Shown here: positions 5,590-11,202 of the stretch, piece by piece
How positions within the stretch are numbered: the first letter of the stretch is position 1
How the letters are laid out: each line of letters starts with the position of its first letter
From: Cytophagales bacterium
GTDB taxonomy: Bacteria > Bacteroidota > Bacteroidia > Cytophagales > UBA9547
Direction of reading: 5' to 3'
Length of the DNA stretch: 47,343 nucleotides
Assembly: GCA_046152935.1 (NCBI GenBank)
Contig: JBJXGB010000208.1
Span: 1 to 47,343, forward strand
Made by a program: the position numbers and the translations under genes
Notes under the pieces: model-generated
Database searches by the model: none
Told to the model about the DNA's origin: nothing
Seen by the model: only the letters and a program-made list of their open reading frames with translations

Positions 5590-6615
5590 CTAGAGCATTG
5601 CTTTGATTATGAAAAAGGCATTTATAAGCACATAAGTAGAAGCTATTATTTTAAATGCTTTCATGTCGGCTGCTACCAGTTCTTTGATTCCAGACTTGTA
5701 TGCGGCTGGCTTTACTACATATATGTTGATAGCAGAGTACAAAATAATCAAAAATATAAAGATAAATGTAACCGCATGAAGAATGTCGGCAAGGGTGAGC
5801 GAATTTACATTTGGCAACAATGCATCTACAAAATATTTATTTCCCACAGCGGCAAATAAGCTACCTACAGGCAGCGAAAACCGCGTGCTCAGATCACGTG
5901 GATGCACAAACAGAGAAATAATCGCGATAAAAAAGCTCACATAAAGGCCCGTAAAGAGTTTTAAAAATAAGAAACCCACTTCACGCTGCACGTCTACCGT
6001 GGCCACGACTCTGTCAAAGGCTTCTTTGTTTTTGAGAGCTTTGGGGTTGCCAAAATTATTGTTGTATTTGTGTTGCTCGTGGGCAATATGAAAGTTTGAT
6101 TTTATCTTTATTCCGTTGATATGCAGGTTGTTATCAATGCCAGATTTTGAAAATGGCGTTTCAGAAAGTATGAATTTTAGCCTGCGTTTTTCATTTTCAG
6201 CATCTTCAAATTTGAGGTGCAATACCTGGTTATCGAAAGGAAAATCACGTACATCAAAATCATTTCTGATTTTGGCCGACACCTTTTTGAGTACGTAGAA
6301 ATCGTTTTTGAGCGAACTGTCAATTTTCACGTACGATTCGGCAACTTCACCATTGTATATGTTGAGGAGATTTACTGTTTTCAATGGATTTAGCCCAAAT
6401 TGTTTAGCATATTCTTTCCGATAAACATACCAAACCCAAAAATCGACACCGAAATAATTTTCCTGCAACTTAATATCGTGAATCGAAGTGATATAAATTC
6501 CCATTGTTACCGTTTTTGCCAACTCTTTAGGCTTTTGTGTTTTTGAAAATCCGCAGAAATAGTTGAAGAAACAAAAGCAAAAAAGAAAGATTAAGATAAA
6601 ATGTTTTTGCTGCAT
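5590..6615 (-). CDS. Prokaryotic pentameric ligand-gated ion channel (GLIC/ELIC-like Pro-loop receptor)
   Basis: Signal peptide; beta-rich extracellular domain (VTMGIYITSIHDI...FGVDFWVWY); Pro-loop DVRDFPFDNQ; four C-terminal hydrophobic helices with an LP in the M2-M3 loop. Confidence 0.85.
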   Translation of the reverse strand: MQQKHFILIFLFCFCFFNYFCGFSKTQKPKELAKTVTMGIYITSIHDIKLQENYFGVDFWVWYVYRKEYAKQFGLNPLKTVNLLNIYNGEVAESYVKIDSSLKNDFYVLKKVSAKIRNDFDVRDFPFDNQVLHLKFEDAENEKRRLKFILSETPFSKSGIDNNLHINGIKIKSNFHIAHEQHKYNNNFGNPKALKNKEAFDRVVATVDVQREVGFLFLKLFTGLYVSFFIAIISLFVHPRDLSTRFSLPVGSLFAAVGNKYFVDALLPNVNSLTLADILHAVTFIFIFLIILYSAINIYVVKPAAYKSGIKELVAADMKAFKIIASTYVLINAFFIIKAML

Positions 6616-6760
6616 TGGAATTTACTAGTCAGAGTTCAAGTCTTTAAAATTACTAATCGAGATCGATTCGATGACTGCAAGTTGTTAAATAATAATTAAT
6701 TAGAGCTTTTTTGTTTCGAGTTGAAAAAACAAATATTTTATTTTGATCTTGCAATATCAT

Positions 6761-6768
6761 TATATTTG
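6761..6768 (+). promoter_or_regulatory. Bacteroidota -7 promoter element TATATTTG for the leader/mbnPH operon
   Basis: Exact match to TAnnTTTG followed by CA. It lies inside the track ORF, so the real start is probably downstream (TTG at 6787). Confidence 0.6.
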
Positions 6769-6786
6769 CAGCGAATTTATAAGTTT

Positions 6787-7176
6787 TTGAAAAGCACGCG
6801 CACAAACTTTCGATTTTTTTTGGCAAGTACTTTGCTATCGGTCTATTTGATGTGTTCGTTTAAGATGTACACTCCGTATATCAATTATAAAATCAACTAT
6901 AAATATATAGCAGGCGTGCTTTGCGAAAACAAAGCAAAACCCAAAATGCAATGCAACGGCAAATGCCACTTAAAAAAGGAACTGAAAAAAGCAGCAACTG
7001 AAGAATCCAAAAGCAAAGCTGAGCTAAAAAATATTGAGCAAGAAGAATTTTTAGAGATAAATGTGTTTTTGTTGCATAATTTTCAATTTATCGCTGAAAA
7101 CCAATTGTATTTTTTCCATTCAAATAGATATGCTTCATTTTCTTTAGAGCATATTTCCCCACCGCCACAGGCTTAG
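6787..7176 (+). CDS. Small membrane-targeted Cys-motif protein ending in PPPQA; putative metal-responsive leader (CruR/CutF/DUF2946-like architecture)
   Basis: N-terminal hydrophobic segment, CENKAKPKMQCNGKCHL, a charged linker and C-terminal HISPPPQA. First gene of the metal operon. The start codon is uncertain (track gives 6721). Confidence 0.7.
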   Translation: MKSTRTNFRFFLASTLLSVYLMCSFKMYTPYINYKINYKYIAGVLCENKAKPKMQCNGKCHLKKELKKAATEESKSKAELKNIEQEEFLEINVFLLHNFQFIAENQLYFFHSNRYASFSLEHISPPPQA

Positions 7177-7293
7177 TTTCATTTTGTAAATTTTAGTATT
7201 TTTTGGTGATTCGGTTACTAACCGTCATTAAAGTTTTTGTGCTATTATTTATTTGTCAAAAGAAATATTTATTCATTTTTAATTCTCGAGAAT

Positions 7294-8388
7294 ATGAACA
7301 GCAACCTGCAAAGGCTATGGCTTCTGTTTACCATATTTGGCGTTTTCTTATTAGTAAGAGTTGAGCCTTTATTGGGACAGAACGCTGAATCTGCAAACGA
7401 TAAACATGGCTCGTGCCATTCGCACGATCAAAGTCCAGTTGGAGTAATGTTTAGCCACATTCATCCTTCAAAAAGTTTTATGTTTTCTTATCGATTTATG
7501 TCGATGGCTATGAATGATAAGTTGAGTGGAACCAGAAATGTAGCTGATAATGAGGTGTTTACCAATTATTTGATGTTACCAAAACAAATGCGAATGGATA
7601 TGCACATGCTAATGGCAATGTATGGCTTATCAAACAAAATCACATTGATGGCAATGGTCAATTACAATGTGTTTTCGATGGAAATGAGCATGCTTCCGAG
7701 CAATGCAAATGCCAGCAGTTCGCATTCTCAGCACAACCATTCCGACCACGACCACATGGCGATGAAAACCTCTGGCATTGGCGACACAAAACTGTATGTT
7801 TTGTATGATTTAATTCAGAAAAACGAGTACCAGTTTTTATTGAATTTTGGTGTTAGTATTCCTACTGGCGATATAAATATTGCTGGAAATGAGGCAAATA
7901 TGTACCCTTCATCTCGTTTGCCATACTCGATGCAATTAGGCTCTGGCAGTTATGAATTATTGCCAGGAATCACTTACAGTACCAAATTTCGATCTATTTC
8001 CGCTAGTTTACAGGCATTGTATATTCATCGAATACATGCCAATTCTGTTGGTTACAGGCTTGGAAATGAATGTGTTGCAAATGCTTGGGCTGCTTATCAG
8101 TTGACTAAATGGCTAAGTTTTTCAATGCGAGCAGAAGGCATATTTTCTAGTCCAATTCGCGGTGCAGACAATTCAATTTATTACTTATCTGAGCCAGCAG
8201 CAAATACGGCTAATTATGGTGGGCAGAAAGTCAATGCTTTCGGAGGCCTGAATTATTTTCCCAAAATAGGTTTTTTGCAAACTGCAAGATTGTCGCTAGA
8301 ATATGGGCTGCCAGTATATCAAAATTTAAACGGCATTCAATCTGCTACTTCTGGTACGTTAATAGCTGGATTGCAAGTCGATTTCTAA
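7294..8388 (+). CDS. His/Met-rich outer-membrane beta-barrel protein (plug-less transporter-like)
   Basis: Signal peptide; HGSCHSHD-SPVGVMFSHIH, MRMDMHMLMAMYG and HSQHNHSDHDHMAM; GIGD motif; alternating strands; terminal Phe (GLQVDF). Confidence 0.75.
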   Translation: MNSNLQRLWLLFTIFGVFLLVRVEPLLGQNAESANDKHGSCHSHDQSPVGVMFSHIHPSKSFMFSYRFMSMAMNDKLSGTRNVADNEVFTNYLMLPKQMRMDMHMLMAMYGLSNKITLMAMVNYNVFSMEMSMLPSNANASSSHSQHNHSDHDHMAMKTSGIGDTKLYVLYDLIQKNEYQFLLNFGVSIPTGDINIAGNEANMYPSSRLPYSMQLGSGSYELLPGITYSTKFRSISASLQALYIHRIHANSVGYRLGNECVANAWAAYQLTKWLSFSMRAEGIFSSPIRGADNSIYYLSEPAANTANYGGQKVNAFGGLNYFPKIGFLQTARLSLEYGLPVYQNLNGIQSATSGTLIAGLQVDF

Positions 8389-8418: not shown

Positions 8419-9189
8419 ATGAAAAAATTAAATTTATACCAACTCATGCTTGGCATTTTTGTCTTTTACACATTGAATTGCTGTAAAGATAAAGACAATA
8501 CTGCTACACCAATAGCTCCCACTGGTTCGCTGGAATTTCACATCCACACTAATGTGGGCAATAGCGAAGTAGAAGAATATGGTGTTGAATATTATGCCAA
8601 CAACAGAAAAATGATTATCGTCAAGTCTCAAATGTATATTTCTGGCATAGAGCTTGTAAAATTAGATGGCAATATTGTGAATGCACCCAACCAGTCTTTT
8701 TTGATTGAAAATGCAAACGATGAGTATAAAATTGTGAATTTGCCCGTTGGTAATTATCGCTCGATTAGATTTTATGTTGGGTTAGATGAAATTACCAATC
8801 AAAAAAAAGCGGGTATTTCAGATACACTTATTAATAGAGCTGATATGTGGTTTGGCAACAGTGCAGAACCAAATAAATATGTGTTTTTAAATTTTCAAGG
8901 CTCAATAGACACCACAGATGCGAAAAATGGTAGCACTTTGGTGAATTTTGACTTTAAAATAGGCACTATTAGCAATAGAAAGCAAGTTTTCATGCCAGAT
9001 CTCAATTTTACAATTGCTGCTAATCAGATCGCAGTTTTACACATGGCAGCCGATTACAATCGGCTCTTTGATGGCATTAATCTAACTAATAATGGGAATT
9101 TGATACTAAATACGACATCTGATAATTCAAGTGATCTTGCGGCCAAATTGGTGTCGAATATTTCGTTGGTGCTAGACTATGAAAAGTAA
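8419..9189 (+). CDS. MbnP-family lipoprotein, paralogue 1 (lacks the WxW motif)
   Basis: Lipobox Cys followed by KDKD; YISGIELVK; PVGNYRSIRFYVGLD; DMWF...YVFLNFQG. Visibly paralogous to the next gene. Confidence 0.7.
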   Translation: MKKLNLYQLMLGIFVFYTLNCCKDKDNTATPIAPTGSLEFHIHTNVGNSEVEEYGVEYYANNRKMIIVKSQMYISGIELVKLDGNIVNAPNQSFLIENANDEYKIVNLPVGNYRSIRFYVGLDEITNQKKAGISDTLINRADMWFGNSAEPNKYVFLNFQGSIDTTDAKNGSTLVNFDFKIGTISNRKQVFMPDLNFTIAANQIAVLHMAADYNRLFDGINLTNNGNLILNTTSDNSSDLAAKLVSNISLVLDYEK

Positions 9190-9279: not shown

Positions 9280-10056
9280 ATGAAAAATACATTCAAATTT
9301 GCATCTACAATAGCTTTAACAGTTTCATTATTAACAAGTTGTACAAAAAAGGAGGACCAACCAGCACCAGTTTCTACTCCTCAGACCCAGAAAGTATCGC
9401 TCAACTTTAGTCATGTGGCTGGTGATAAAACTGTAAATTTCGCAGACGTTTTTACCTCAACTAAGGGTGCAAAATTTACACTTAGTATGTTTCGATATTA
9501 TGTGTCAAATGTTCGTTTCGTAAAAGCGGACAATACCGAACAGACAGTTCCTGGAACGTATTTTTTGGTAAGTCCAAACAATCCAGTTTGTGATTTGGGT
9601 CAAGTGCCTGTGGGCGATTACAAGGGTGTCAAATTTGCTGTGGGAGTCGATTCTGTCACCAACCATGCCGATATTACAAAATACCCAGCAAGCAATCCAT
9701 TGGCCGTGCAAAGCCCGGGCATTCACTGGAGTTGGAATAGTGGCTATATTTTTGTGATGGTGGAAGGGACGGTCGATACAACTGCTGGCAACATCGATGT
9801 ATTGACTTTTGGCCAGTATTCAAAAGGTATGTTTTTTCATTTGGGAACAGATAAATTGTATAAAAAAGTCGAACTTTTGCAGCCAATATCAGTTAAAAAA
9901 GAAGGTGAGAAAACTGTTTCTATCAAAACAGACATAAATACCTTATTCGCCAATATTGATCTGAAAACCCAAAATGCAACGCATACATTTTCCAACAATT
10001 CAATAGCAACGTTAGCTGGCGCAAATATTCCATCGATGTTTTCAATTGCACAATAA
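9280..10056 (+). CDS. mbnP: MbnP-family copper-binding lipoprotein, paralogue 2
   Basis: Lipobox LTSC; FRYYVSNVRF; PVGDYKGVKFAVGVDSVTNH; HWSWNSGYIF (WxW); FHLG; adjacent to a di-heme enzyme gene. Confidence 0.85.
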   Translation: MKNTFKFASTIALTVSLLTSCTKKEDQPAPVSTPQTQKVSLNFSHVAGDKTVNFADVFTSTKGAKFTLSMFRYYVSNVRFVKADNTEQTVPGTYFLVSPNNPVCDLGQVPVGDYKGVKFAVGVDSVTNHADITKYPASNPLAVQSPGIHWSWNSGYIFVMVEGTVDTTAGNIDVLTFGQYSKGMFFHLGTDKLYKKVELLQPISVKKEGEKTVSIKTDINTLFANIDLKTQNATHTFSNNSIATLAGANIPSMFSIAQ

Positions 10057-10125: not shown

Positions 10126-11202
10126 ATGAATTATTTAGCAAAATACATCAGCCGACCCTTTTGGTCGGCTCTTTTTTACACTCTTTTTAATAAAAATAGG
10201 TCAATACTTCCAATTGTAGTACTGATTCTGGTAAGTGCTTGTAAAAAAAATGAAGTATTGGACGAATTGGGTAGTAAAACAGACGATGCTGGCAGTAAAA
10301 CTATTCAGCTCACTGTTCCAAAAGGTTTTCCATATCCCGAAATTCCTTTAGACAATTTGCCCACCCAAAATCGGATAGATTTGGGTAAAAAGCTGTTTTT
10401 CGACCCAATTTTATCCCGCGATTCTACTATTTCGTGTGCTTCGTGCCACCATACAGACAAGTTTTTTACTGATAATCAGAAACTTAGCAAAGGTATCGAT
10501 GGGCGATTGGGCAAAAGAAATGCTACCTCACTTATAAATGTGGCTTATTTGACTGATATATTTTGGGATGGGGGAGTTCCCAATTTAGAGCAACAGGTTT
10601 TGGCACCTATTGAAGACCACACCGAAATGGATTTTGATGCCAATAAAGTAGTGGAAAGGTTAAAAAAGCATTCAAATTACTCAATATTGTTTCAGAAAGC
10701 ATACCAACAAGAGCCAACAATTTTTGCATTGACTAGAGCTATTGCTTGCTACGAACGCACTTTGATTGGCGGCACCTCGAGATTTGACCGTTTTTTGAAT
10801 GAAAATGACAGTTCTGCTCTTTCTGAGTCAGAAATTAGAGGTCACAATTTGTTTTTAAGTGAAGATGGTGAATGTTTTCACTGCCACGTTGGATTTAACT
10901 TCACAGATAACAGCTTTAGAAACAATGGTTTGTATCGTACATATCCAGATTCTGGCAGGGCTCGAATTACCATGGATGATGCCGACATTGGCAAATTTAA
11001 AGTGCCTTCGCTCAGAAATATCACCAAAACAGCACCATATATGCACGATGGAAGTTTGGCTACGCTCGATCAAGTTTTAGATCATTACATTAGTGGTGGC
11101 AAACGCCATCCCAATAGAAGCCCGATCATAAAGCCGCTGCCGCTTAATTTGAAGCAAAAGCAAGACATTATTAATTTTCTTTCTTCCCTTACAGATGAAT
11201 AA
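10126..11202 (+). CDS. mbnH: Di-heme cytochrome c peroxidase/MauG-family enzyme (MbnH-like), lipoprotein
   Basis: CASCH and CFHCH heme motifs, LGKKLFFDPILS, FWDG, FKVPSLRN-TAPYMHDGS, VLDHY. Confidence 0.88.
   Translation: MNYLAKYISRPFWSALFYTLFNKNRSILPIVVLILVSACKKNEVLDELGSKTDDAGSKTIQLTVPKGFPYPEIPLDNLPTQNRIDLGKKLFFDPILSRDSTISCASCHHTDKFFTDNQKLSKGIDGRLGKRNATSLINVAYLTDIFWDGGVPNLEQQVLAPIEDHTEMDFDANKVVERLKKHSNYSILFQKAYQQEPTIFALTRAIACYERTLIGGTSRFDRFLNENDSSALSESEIRGHNLFLSEDGECFHCHVGFNFTDNSFRNNGLYRTYPDSGRARITMDDADIGKFKVPSLRNITKTAPYMHDGSLATLDQVLDHYISGGKRHPNRSPIIKPLPLNLKQKQDIINFLSSLTDE
10150..10177 (+). terminator. Intrinsic-terminator-like hairpin inside the 5' end of mbnH
   Basis: AGCCGACC-ctttt-GGTCGGCT (8-bp perfect stem) followed by CTTTTTT. 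Confidence 0.6.

Follow-up and report, generated by a model that had tools for sequence, protein, structure and literature searches.

A putative metal-sensing arrest leader at the head of copper-linked operons in Bacteroidota

We identified a small open reading frame (ORF) at positions 6787-7176 on the forward strand of a contig from a Cytophagales bacterium (Bacteroidota; GenBank assembly GCA_046152935.1, contig JBJXGB010000208.1), and we propose that it is a cis-acting, metal-sensing arrest leader, probably responding to copper, for the operon behind it. Throughout, the window is the whole stretch of 47,343 nucleotides that was analyzed. We put the probability of this reading at about 55%. 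What we observed directly is a protein family with shared motifs at a fixed spacing, its constant position as the first gene before copper-linked operons, structured spacers between the two and, in relatives, a predicted helix that would hide the start of the next gene. From these we infer metal binding, arrest, action in cis and a direction of control for the leader ORF.

The leader and its family

The leader ORF encodes a protein of 129 amino acids (aa) that begins MKSTRTNFRFFLASTLLSVYLMCSFKMYTPY and is read from TTG at 6787 to TAG at 7174-7176. This TTG is the probable start codon, placed by alignment with homologues that begin MKK and continue with the same hydrophobic segment. The entry for this gene in the protein collection (P0001) starts instead at ATG 6865 and has 103 aa, leaving out 6787-6864 and losing the hydrophobic segment. 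The annotation thus calls the window gene 26 codons short; several relatives are likewise called too short, and the family has no Pfam or NCBIfam model. All the elements listed in a preliminary description of this stretch are present: the ORF, its hydrophobic N-terminus, the Cys motif, the spacer behind that motif, the PPP, the T-rich spacer and the inverted repeat. The features of the leader region, all on the + strand, are as follows.

6761..6768, +: TATATTTG, a match to the TAnnTTTG box, 19 nucleotides (nt) 5' of the TTG (sequence against the consensus)
6787..7176, +: leader ORF, unnamed Bacteroidota family (ORF and homologue comparison)
6811..6879, +: hydrophobic N-terminal segment, about residues 9-31, putative signal anchor (family profile, structure model)
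6922..6969, +: Cys motif within the conserved block (kept across homologues)
6970..7158, +: linker of 63 residues, weakly conserved in sequence, conserved in length (column statistics)
7159..7167, +: PPP codons CCA CCG CCA, proposed arrest site (sequence)
7177..7293, +: T-rich spacer from the leader to the first structural gene (sequence)
7201..7238, +: hairpin 7201-7233 followed by TTTTT 7234-7238, candidate terminator or pause element (folding)

The Cys motif CENKAKPKMQCNGKCH spans residues 46-61 (6922-6969) in the arrangement C46-x9-C56-x3-C60-H61. A K/E-rich stretch follows, and 63 residues separate H61 from P125, the first of the three prolines, after which only two sense codons (Q, A) precede the stop. 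An AlphaFold2 (AF2) model built on an alignment of 141 sequences has a helix at residues 4-36, with a predicted local distance difference test (pLDDT) score above 90, then the Cys loop and a long helix. Confidence is 81-97 for residues 1-80 and 54-73 from residue 81 on (54-60 for 81-120), and the C-terminal half of the model has no globular fold. Scans with Pfam (E ≤ 0.01) and NCBIfam models gave no match to the leader protein. Upstream, TATATTTG at 6761-6768 fits TAnnTTTG, the Bacteroidetes -7 promoter box.

The family is large. A word-indexed search with the leader recovered 63 relatives at E ≤ 0.001 among 78 candidates, and an exhaustive search recovered 3955 cluster representatives at E ≤ 0.001, with 337 at E ≤ 1e-10. 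The family profile matches 105 of 301 sampled Bacteroidota genomes and 58 of 144 genera; it finds a single copy in the window's own genome. Our motif counts rest on 207 homologue sequences that were fetched. The pattern C-x9-C-x-[GC]-x-C is present in 204 of the 207, the remainder being two fragments of 77 and 76 aa (P0008 and P0098) and one sequence with Ser for the first Cys (P0177). After the third Cys comes H in 149 of these 204, Y in 48, F in four and Q in three. The prolines are kept as well, a point that the preliminary description had proposed to check: 197 of the 204 homologues have PP behind the Cys motif, no more than 12 residues from the C-terminus, and it is missing from P0007, P0073, P0117, P0153, P0169, P0188 and P0200. 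With the Cys pattern and the terminal PP kept in such proportions, the features of the leader lie beyond chance.

The spacing of these elements is fixed. The last Cys lies 65-77 residues from the last Pro, and 66-72 residues in 185 of 197 homologues; 2-5 residues follow the last Pro, also in 185 of 197. The family N-terminus reads M-K-K/R, then 15 hydrophobic positions, then K/R-P. Around the cysteines runs a conserved block, PxxxYxxNYxYIxxxLCENKxKPxMxCNGKCHLKKELKK, with 3-4 bits in many columns, and behind it come about 45 columns at 0.3-0.7 bits that end in [I/V][F/T][H/P/R]PP. Position -1 before PP is P in 80, H in 78 and R in 19 of the 197 homologues, and position -2 is F in 98, T in 39 and S in 15, giving a terminal motif of [F/T/S][H/P/R]PP.

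Copper-linked operons behind the leader

The genome context set comprised the best 80 of 588 confirmed loci together with the window, 81 loci in all. Neighboring ORFs were called crudely, with ATG starts and at least 100 aa, clustered by blastp and named through a Pfam scan of one representative per cluster. Three loci (L003, L010 and L021) were left out of the downstream counts, as their contigs end before a complete same-strand downstream gene. In 76 of the remaining 78 genome loci, the window included, the next same-strand gene belongs to a copper-linked class: MbnP in 41 loci, a YtkA-like protein in 13, a TonB-dependent receptor in 12 and a FapF-like channel in 10. The other two loci, L063 and L076, seem to be fragmented versions. 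A TonB receptor together with PepSY_TM lies downstream in L042 and L069. The gap between leader and next gene has a median of 110 nt, with the 10th to 90th percentiles at 72-210 nt (L046 and L076 dropped).

Of 80 loci from an independent metagenome scan, 73 contain a leader ORF, with 75 such ORFs in all. In 53 of the 55 cases that have a complete gene downstream, that gene falls into the same copper-linked classes, including L124.1, whose first called gene is MbnH, 1195 nt off. Another 20 metagenome leaders have no such complete gene: 18 of them are no more than 1.3 kb from the end of a contig, and the remaining two, L107 and L163, are followed by TonB receptors that run off the locus. Adjacency and orientation of leader and operon are strictly kept across orders, and the expectation in the preliminary description that the leader would stand first before metal genes is borne out in both collections. 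On the upstream side, 50 of the 81 loci have a neighbor on the opposite strand, 25 have one on the leader's strand and six have none; in 10 loci the neighbor is a divergent Crp-family regulator. Two copies of the leader occur in some genomes, either in tandem or separated by 2-4 kb, and apparently head successive copper operons; examples are L046 (5926-6363 and 6583-6978) and the genomes G211, G027, G271, G051, G022, G095 and G227.

In the window, the genes behind the leader are the following.

7294..8388, +: outer-membrane channel with His-rich loops, 12-strand FapF/COG4313-like fold (AF2, Foldseek)
8419..9189, +: MbnP-family protein (PF20243, E 5.2e-21)
9280..10056, +: MbnP-family protein (PF20243, E 2.7e-41; TIGR04052, E 7.7e-18, below cut-off)
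10126..11202, +: MbnH/MauG-like di-haem peroxidase (PF03150, E 3.2e-54; TIGR04039 (MbnH), E 1.1e-85, below cut-off)

The channel gene has no Pfam or NCBIfam family. Its AF2 model has a predicted template modelling score of 0.73, and Foldseek places it with FapF (5o65, E 3.6e-13) and a COG4313 channel (4rl8, E 3.4e-11). Its His-rich loops are HGSCHSHDQS and SSSHSQHNHSDHDHMAM, and 50 of its relatives adjoin MbnP/MbnH genes. On the other side of the leader, a divergent gene at 5590-6615 (- strand) encodes 341 aa; its matches to pentameric ligand-gated ion channels are weak and fall well short of the cut-offs (TIGR00860, E 1.6e-11; NF033918, E 7e-08).

Structured spacers and a predicted start-masking helix

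The spacer of the window (7177-7293) is 117 nt long, with 32 A, 11 C, 15 G and 59 T, or 50% T against 32% window-wide, and it folds with a z-score of -2.0. The palindrome CGGTTA-C-TAACCG (7212-7224) makes up the top of a hairpin with 14 pairs that spans 7201-7233 (-9.3 kcal/mol) and is directly followed by five Ts. A simple promoter and terminator scan found nothing above chance on the + strand of this spacer, missing the hairpin with its U-tract too; an Rfam search of 6600-7450 at E ≤ 1 gave no match, and the window spacer contains no TAnnTTTG box.

Across the family, spacers are more strongly folded than controls of equal length taken upstream, with a mean z of -2.7 and 55% below -2 (n=67) against -0.68 and 12% (n=65). 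The nucleotides just ahead of the next ATG usually stay unpaired, over a median length of 18 nt where shuffles give 5 nt. Whether structure begins right after the stop is uninformative, the median distance to the first paired base being 6 nt in the spacers and 5 nt in shuffled sequences. Perfect TAnnTTTG boxes occur in none of 76 spacers and in 19 of 78 regions upstream of leaders. Terminator-like hairpins were found, under a loose criterion, in 31 of 75 spacers and in 12 of 75 reverse complements, so that intrinsic termination as a general output of the family is only weakly enriched.

A more specific RNA element was seen in 15 Flavobacterium-type spacers, which share three conserved hairpins with covariation and include both MbnP-type and YtkA/TonB-type operons. 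These loci (alignment A2: L025, L079, L039, L060, L029, L056, L053, L071, L072, L013, L011, L058, L036, L054 and L076) were picked by eye, and the three-stem structure was written by hand from the same sequences on which it was then scored. Within that limit, 85% of cells are paired, against at most 59% when the partners are slid; both sides have changed in 15 of 21 pairs, and none of 500 shuffles reaches the observed values. RNAalifold on the MAFFT alignment of A2 recovered only the middle hairpin. An Rfam search of 11 related loci returned only Flavo-1 RNAs, far from the spacers, and no family for the three-hairpin element.

The feature that most directly connects the end of the leader with the next gene is a long-range helix predicted in most relatives. 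All the results on it are thermodynamic predictions on mutually related loci, with the start region of the next gene taken as -18 to +6. Adding the final 75 nt of the leader to the fold lowers the accessibility of this region, compared with a shuffled ORF end, in 56 of 67 loci. Its partner is formed by the last 12 or so nt of the leader, the stop codon and the first nt of the spacer (mean pairing probability 0.44-0.68), with a peak at -11 to 0 relative to the leader stop. Pairing between leader 3' end and start region averages 0.47 (n=67), while 70 other gene junctions from these loci average 0.06; the metagenome loci give 0.35 (n=43) against 0.057 (n=19). The complementarity is locus-specific, as native duplexes of leader end and start region average -7.5 kcal/mol and swapped ones -4.2, and, when ranked against unrelated start regions, the native one comes within the best 10% in 62% of 115 loci. 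The mean is 0.50 in HPP-type leaders (n=52) and 0.54 in RPP-type ones (n=9). Among PPP-type relatives two exceptions pair clearly, L161 and L156, the latter through the codons after PPP and the sequence just 5' of the ATG. In L161 (about 2845-2930), the Pro codons CCACCUCCUG form the complement of CAGGAGG, found 4 nt ahead of the next ATG, so that the Pro codons themselves would mask a site resembling a Shine-Dalgarno (SD) sequence.

A masking helix of this kind would explain why the distance from PP to stop is conserved. It also bears on the suggestion in the preliminary description that control may work by termination or polarity in the spacer and not by occlusion of an SD: for most relatives, predicted masking of the start region points the other way, whereas in the window itself that helix is not predicted, the hairpin with its U-tract is the one element seen, and the suggestion may still apply.

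Proposed mechanism, alternatives and known systems

As we envisage it, the hydrophobic N-terminal segment would bring the nascent chain to the membrane, and the Cys block at residues 46-61 would bind, or fail to bind, metal while the ribosome, some 68 codons ahead, stands at the terminal prolines. How long it pauses there would then depend on whether the chain carries metal, and the position of the ribosome, 2-5 codons before the stop, would set expression of the next gene. In HPP and RPP relatives, a ribosome halted with its P and A sites on Pro codons would, given the size of its footprint, cover the arm of the helix contributed by the leader end and so expose the start region. The operon resembles an uptake system, and for that reason we expect the ribosome to pause, and the operon to be expressed, under copper scarcity, and the ribosome to be released once copper binds.

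Several results weigh against this reading. Plain PP and PPP pauses are normally relieved by elongation factor P (EF-P), which the window's genome encodes. Across the 197 homologues the terminal motif [F/T/S][H/P/R]PP lacks an Arg two residues before PP, a residue described as irreplaceable in RAPP arrest peptides in the accessible text of a recent survey (PMC12992588). The strong conservation of the first 80 residues, and their pLDDT of 81-97, would also suit a stable membrane protein. The U-rich codons at the tail of the leader could be a side effect of selection for hydrophobic residues. P-values overstate the case, as the loci are mutually related, and start codons were called as ATG only. 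Finally, the window departs from most of its relatives. Its masking-helix probability is 0.0 and its duplex reaches only -2.0 kcal/mol, in keeping with PPP-type relatives, which mostly lack the helix (mean 0.12, n=5; 0.14 in metagenomes, n=6). Its start region pairs locally within ATTCTCGAGAAT, and blocking 7151-7181, the footprint of a paused or terminating ribosome, leaves that region closed. The best long-range helix in the window, 7175-7192 with 7250-7267, is equaled by 27% of shuffles; the minimum free energy structure pairs 7131-7150 with 7283-7302 (z -1.9), and no long-range partner of the start region stands out in the ensemble. For the output step in the window we therefore spread our expectation: termination or polarity in the spacer, through the hairpin and its U-tract or of a Rho type, is a tentative candidate somewhat short of even odds, a step of some other kind receives the same weight, and some form of start-site masking is distinctly unlikely.

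The main alternative reading of these observations is a stable, small, membrane-anchored protein that acts in trans, as a copper chaperone, a sensor or an assembly factor for MbnP/MbnH or for uptake through the TonB receptor, with the terminal PP as a structural or interaction motif. A 40-residue Cys block conserved well beyond its cysteines, at 3-4 bits in many columns, would be expected of such a protein, as would the confident model of membrane helix, Cys loop and long helix over residues 1-80 (pLDDT 81-97) and a gene co-operonic with the proteins it might serve. It also gains from what the arrest reading lacks, since the window locus has no RNA feature that ties ribosome position to the next gene, and arrest at [H/R/P]PP is a proposal, made for a genome that encodes EF-P. 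We nevertheless regard a trans-acting protein as somewhat unlikely. It leaves unexplained the constant length of a barely conserved linker, the retention of PP 2-5 codons from the stop, the constant first position with its structured spacer of median 110 nt and, in most relatives, the specific pairing of the last codons with the next start region, and the C-terminal 50 residues are modeled at low confidence.

The hairpins of the spacers raise the further question of whether leader and operon are separate transcription units, the hairpins ending a small transcript or binding a regulator and the operon having its own promoter. The hairpin and TTTTT of the window, the excess of terminator-like hairpins in spacers over reverse complements (31 against 12 of 75, on the loose criterion) and the divergent Crp-family regulator in 10 loci would fit such an arrangement. 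The absence of TAnnTTTG from all 76 spacers, against 19 of 78 upstream regions, does not, nor does the strict adjacency and orientation across orders, and the covarying stems of the Flavobacterium type (15 of 21 pairs) fit an RNA structure better than a fixed protein-binding site; we consider separate units very unlikely. It is more improbable still, to the point of being remote, that the ORF is the precursor of a secreted or modified Cys-containing copper-binding peptide. MbnP/MbnH genes accompany methanobactin genes in some organisms, and the leader is a small Cys-containing product beside such genes, but no modifying-enzyme family occurs among the conserved neighbors, the conserved part follows a hydrophobic segment that looks uncleaved, and length and layout are unlike those of short precursor peptides.

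Copper-sensing leader peptides such as CruR and CutF are a recent discovery. If the arrest-leader reading is right, the present family, in 105 of 301 sampled genomes, would fill a Bacteroidota gap among them, and would do so with an arrest motif that has no RAPP arginine, with a different Cys sensor and a different distance from sensor to stall, and with control of translation start in organisms that do not use SD sites. The gap is visible in a 2025 survey of upstream ORFs (uORFs) with RAPP or RGPP, which in its accessible text reports copper-related examples in many lineages, Bacteroidota not among them (PMC12992588). Our literature search found no relevant paper linking MbnP with Bacteroid* and none naming DUF6660, a second family discussed below.

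CruR, a DUF2946 protein (Bp2923 of Bordetella pertussis; PF11162), has an export signal, a CXXC motif and RAPP three residues before its end; according to the accessible text of Roy et al. (2022, PMC9426467), its motifs are at fixed spacing, as in the leader family despite a variable linker, and it stands first before a TonB receptor, PepSY_TM, MbnPH and other copper genes, with long intergenic regions. The same account proposes that copper relieves arrest and thereby permits Rho termination (PMC9426467). Our leader resembles CruR in being a small first ORF with a putative export-type segment, a Cys motif, PP near the stop, fixed spacing and a long intergenic region, and in heading an uptake-type operon with the same kinds of downstream genes (TonB receptor, PepSY_TM, MbnPH). 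It differs in having C-x9-C-x3-C-H/Y in place of CXXC, [F/T/S][H/P/R]PP in place of RAPP and about 68 residues between motifs in place of 45. CruR's output is Rho-dependent termination; for the present family, start-site masking is predicted in most relatives. The idea in the preliminary description of a Bacteroidota analogue of CruR and CutF is partly supported, through architecture, copper-gene context, terminal prolines and fixed spacing. The family is an analogue, and no similarity to DUF2946 in sequence or profile was found. PF11162 matches none of 28 family members at E ≤ 10, the window protein has no match at E ≤ 0.01 and its own genome has none; NCBIfam models likewise match no family member. 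An hhalign comparison of the family alignment with six DUF2946-like ORFs from other Bacteroidota lineages, a thin test, gave a probability of 0.8% over 8 columns. These six ORFs matched PF11162 weakly and end in SRAPPxx or RGPPxxxx. DUF2946-like ORFs with such ends (L082, L084-L088) show that the classical type also exists in some Bacteroidota lineages; in all, PF11162 matched seven of the 301 Bacteroidota genomes.

RAPP and RGPP arrest peptides also invite comparison. ApdA, ApdP, SecM-like peptides and the RAPP uORFs before metal genes, as described in the accessible text of the survey, are also small secretory or membrane proteins with a C-terminal PP that lie upstream of their presumed targets (PMC12992588). 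The leader family differs from them in lacking R-[A/G]-P-P, with no conserved Arg at -2.

CutF, from the cutFOG operon of Rhodobacter capsulatus, combines an export signal, a Cys motif and a C-terminal PPP (PMC9973294). According to the accessible parts of the published accounts, it stalls at PPP during export when copper is present, and the ribosome melts a stem that hides the next SD (PMC9973294; preprint 10.1101/2025.02.05.636593). The leader shares with CutF a putative export-type segment, a Cys motif with CutF's CxxxC spacing at C56-x3-C60 and, in the window, the C-terminal PPP, and in most of its relatives a start-hiding helix is predicted. In contrast, CutF controls a detoxifying oxidase, is induced by copper and masks an SD over a short intergenic region, whereas here the operon is uptake-like, the masked region is A-rich, free of an SD and 40-200 nt away across a structured spacer, and the window has no helix. 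Bacteroidia ribosomes do not use SD sites, as stated in the accessible text of one study (PMC9976891); the predicted helix would be an SD-free version of the CutF mechanism. Ozturk et al. (2023) counted 5,334 CutF-like proteins, 19% of them from Bacteroidota, and named efflux components, TonB-like proteins and PCuAC among their neighbors; the accessible text does not contain the word MbnP (PMC9973294). The novelty of the leader family is limited by this share, and the family is possibly listed there.

DUF6660 (PF20365) offers a parallel within the Bacteroidota. Its members begin with a hydrophobic segment, carry a Cys-rich motif and end in WQPP plus 2-3 residues, and a metal-type gene lies downstream on the same strand. 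It is a different sequence family, with the Cys motif CSPFCxCxCC and a resistance-nodulation-division (RND) efflux pump downstream: in 10 of 10 loci (L170-L179; genomes G091, G063, G020, G095, G035, G010, G013, G051, G040 and G079) it lies 89-253 nt upstream of an AcrB-type RND pump. PF20365 matches none of 28 leader-family members at E ≤ 10, and an Atlas feature score of 0.88 is a lead only; DUF6660 was not found in the window's own genome and occurs in 20 of 121 Bacteroidota genomes. It may account for much of the Bacteroidota share of CutF-like proteins. A wider, tentative proposal, which we would place a little below even odds, is that Bacteroidota evolved their own metal-sensing arrest-leader families independently of DUF2946, one at uptake operons and DUF6660 at efflux, with start-site unmasking that does without an SD. 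In both, a ribosome pausing 2-5 codons short of the stop would occupy the 5' arm of a long-range helix, one that otherwise conceals an A-rich start region, a nascent-chain sensor would be coupled to SD-free unmasking, and the arrest motif would not need the arginine of RAPP.

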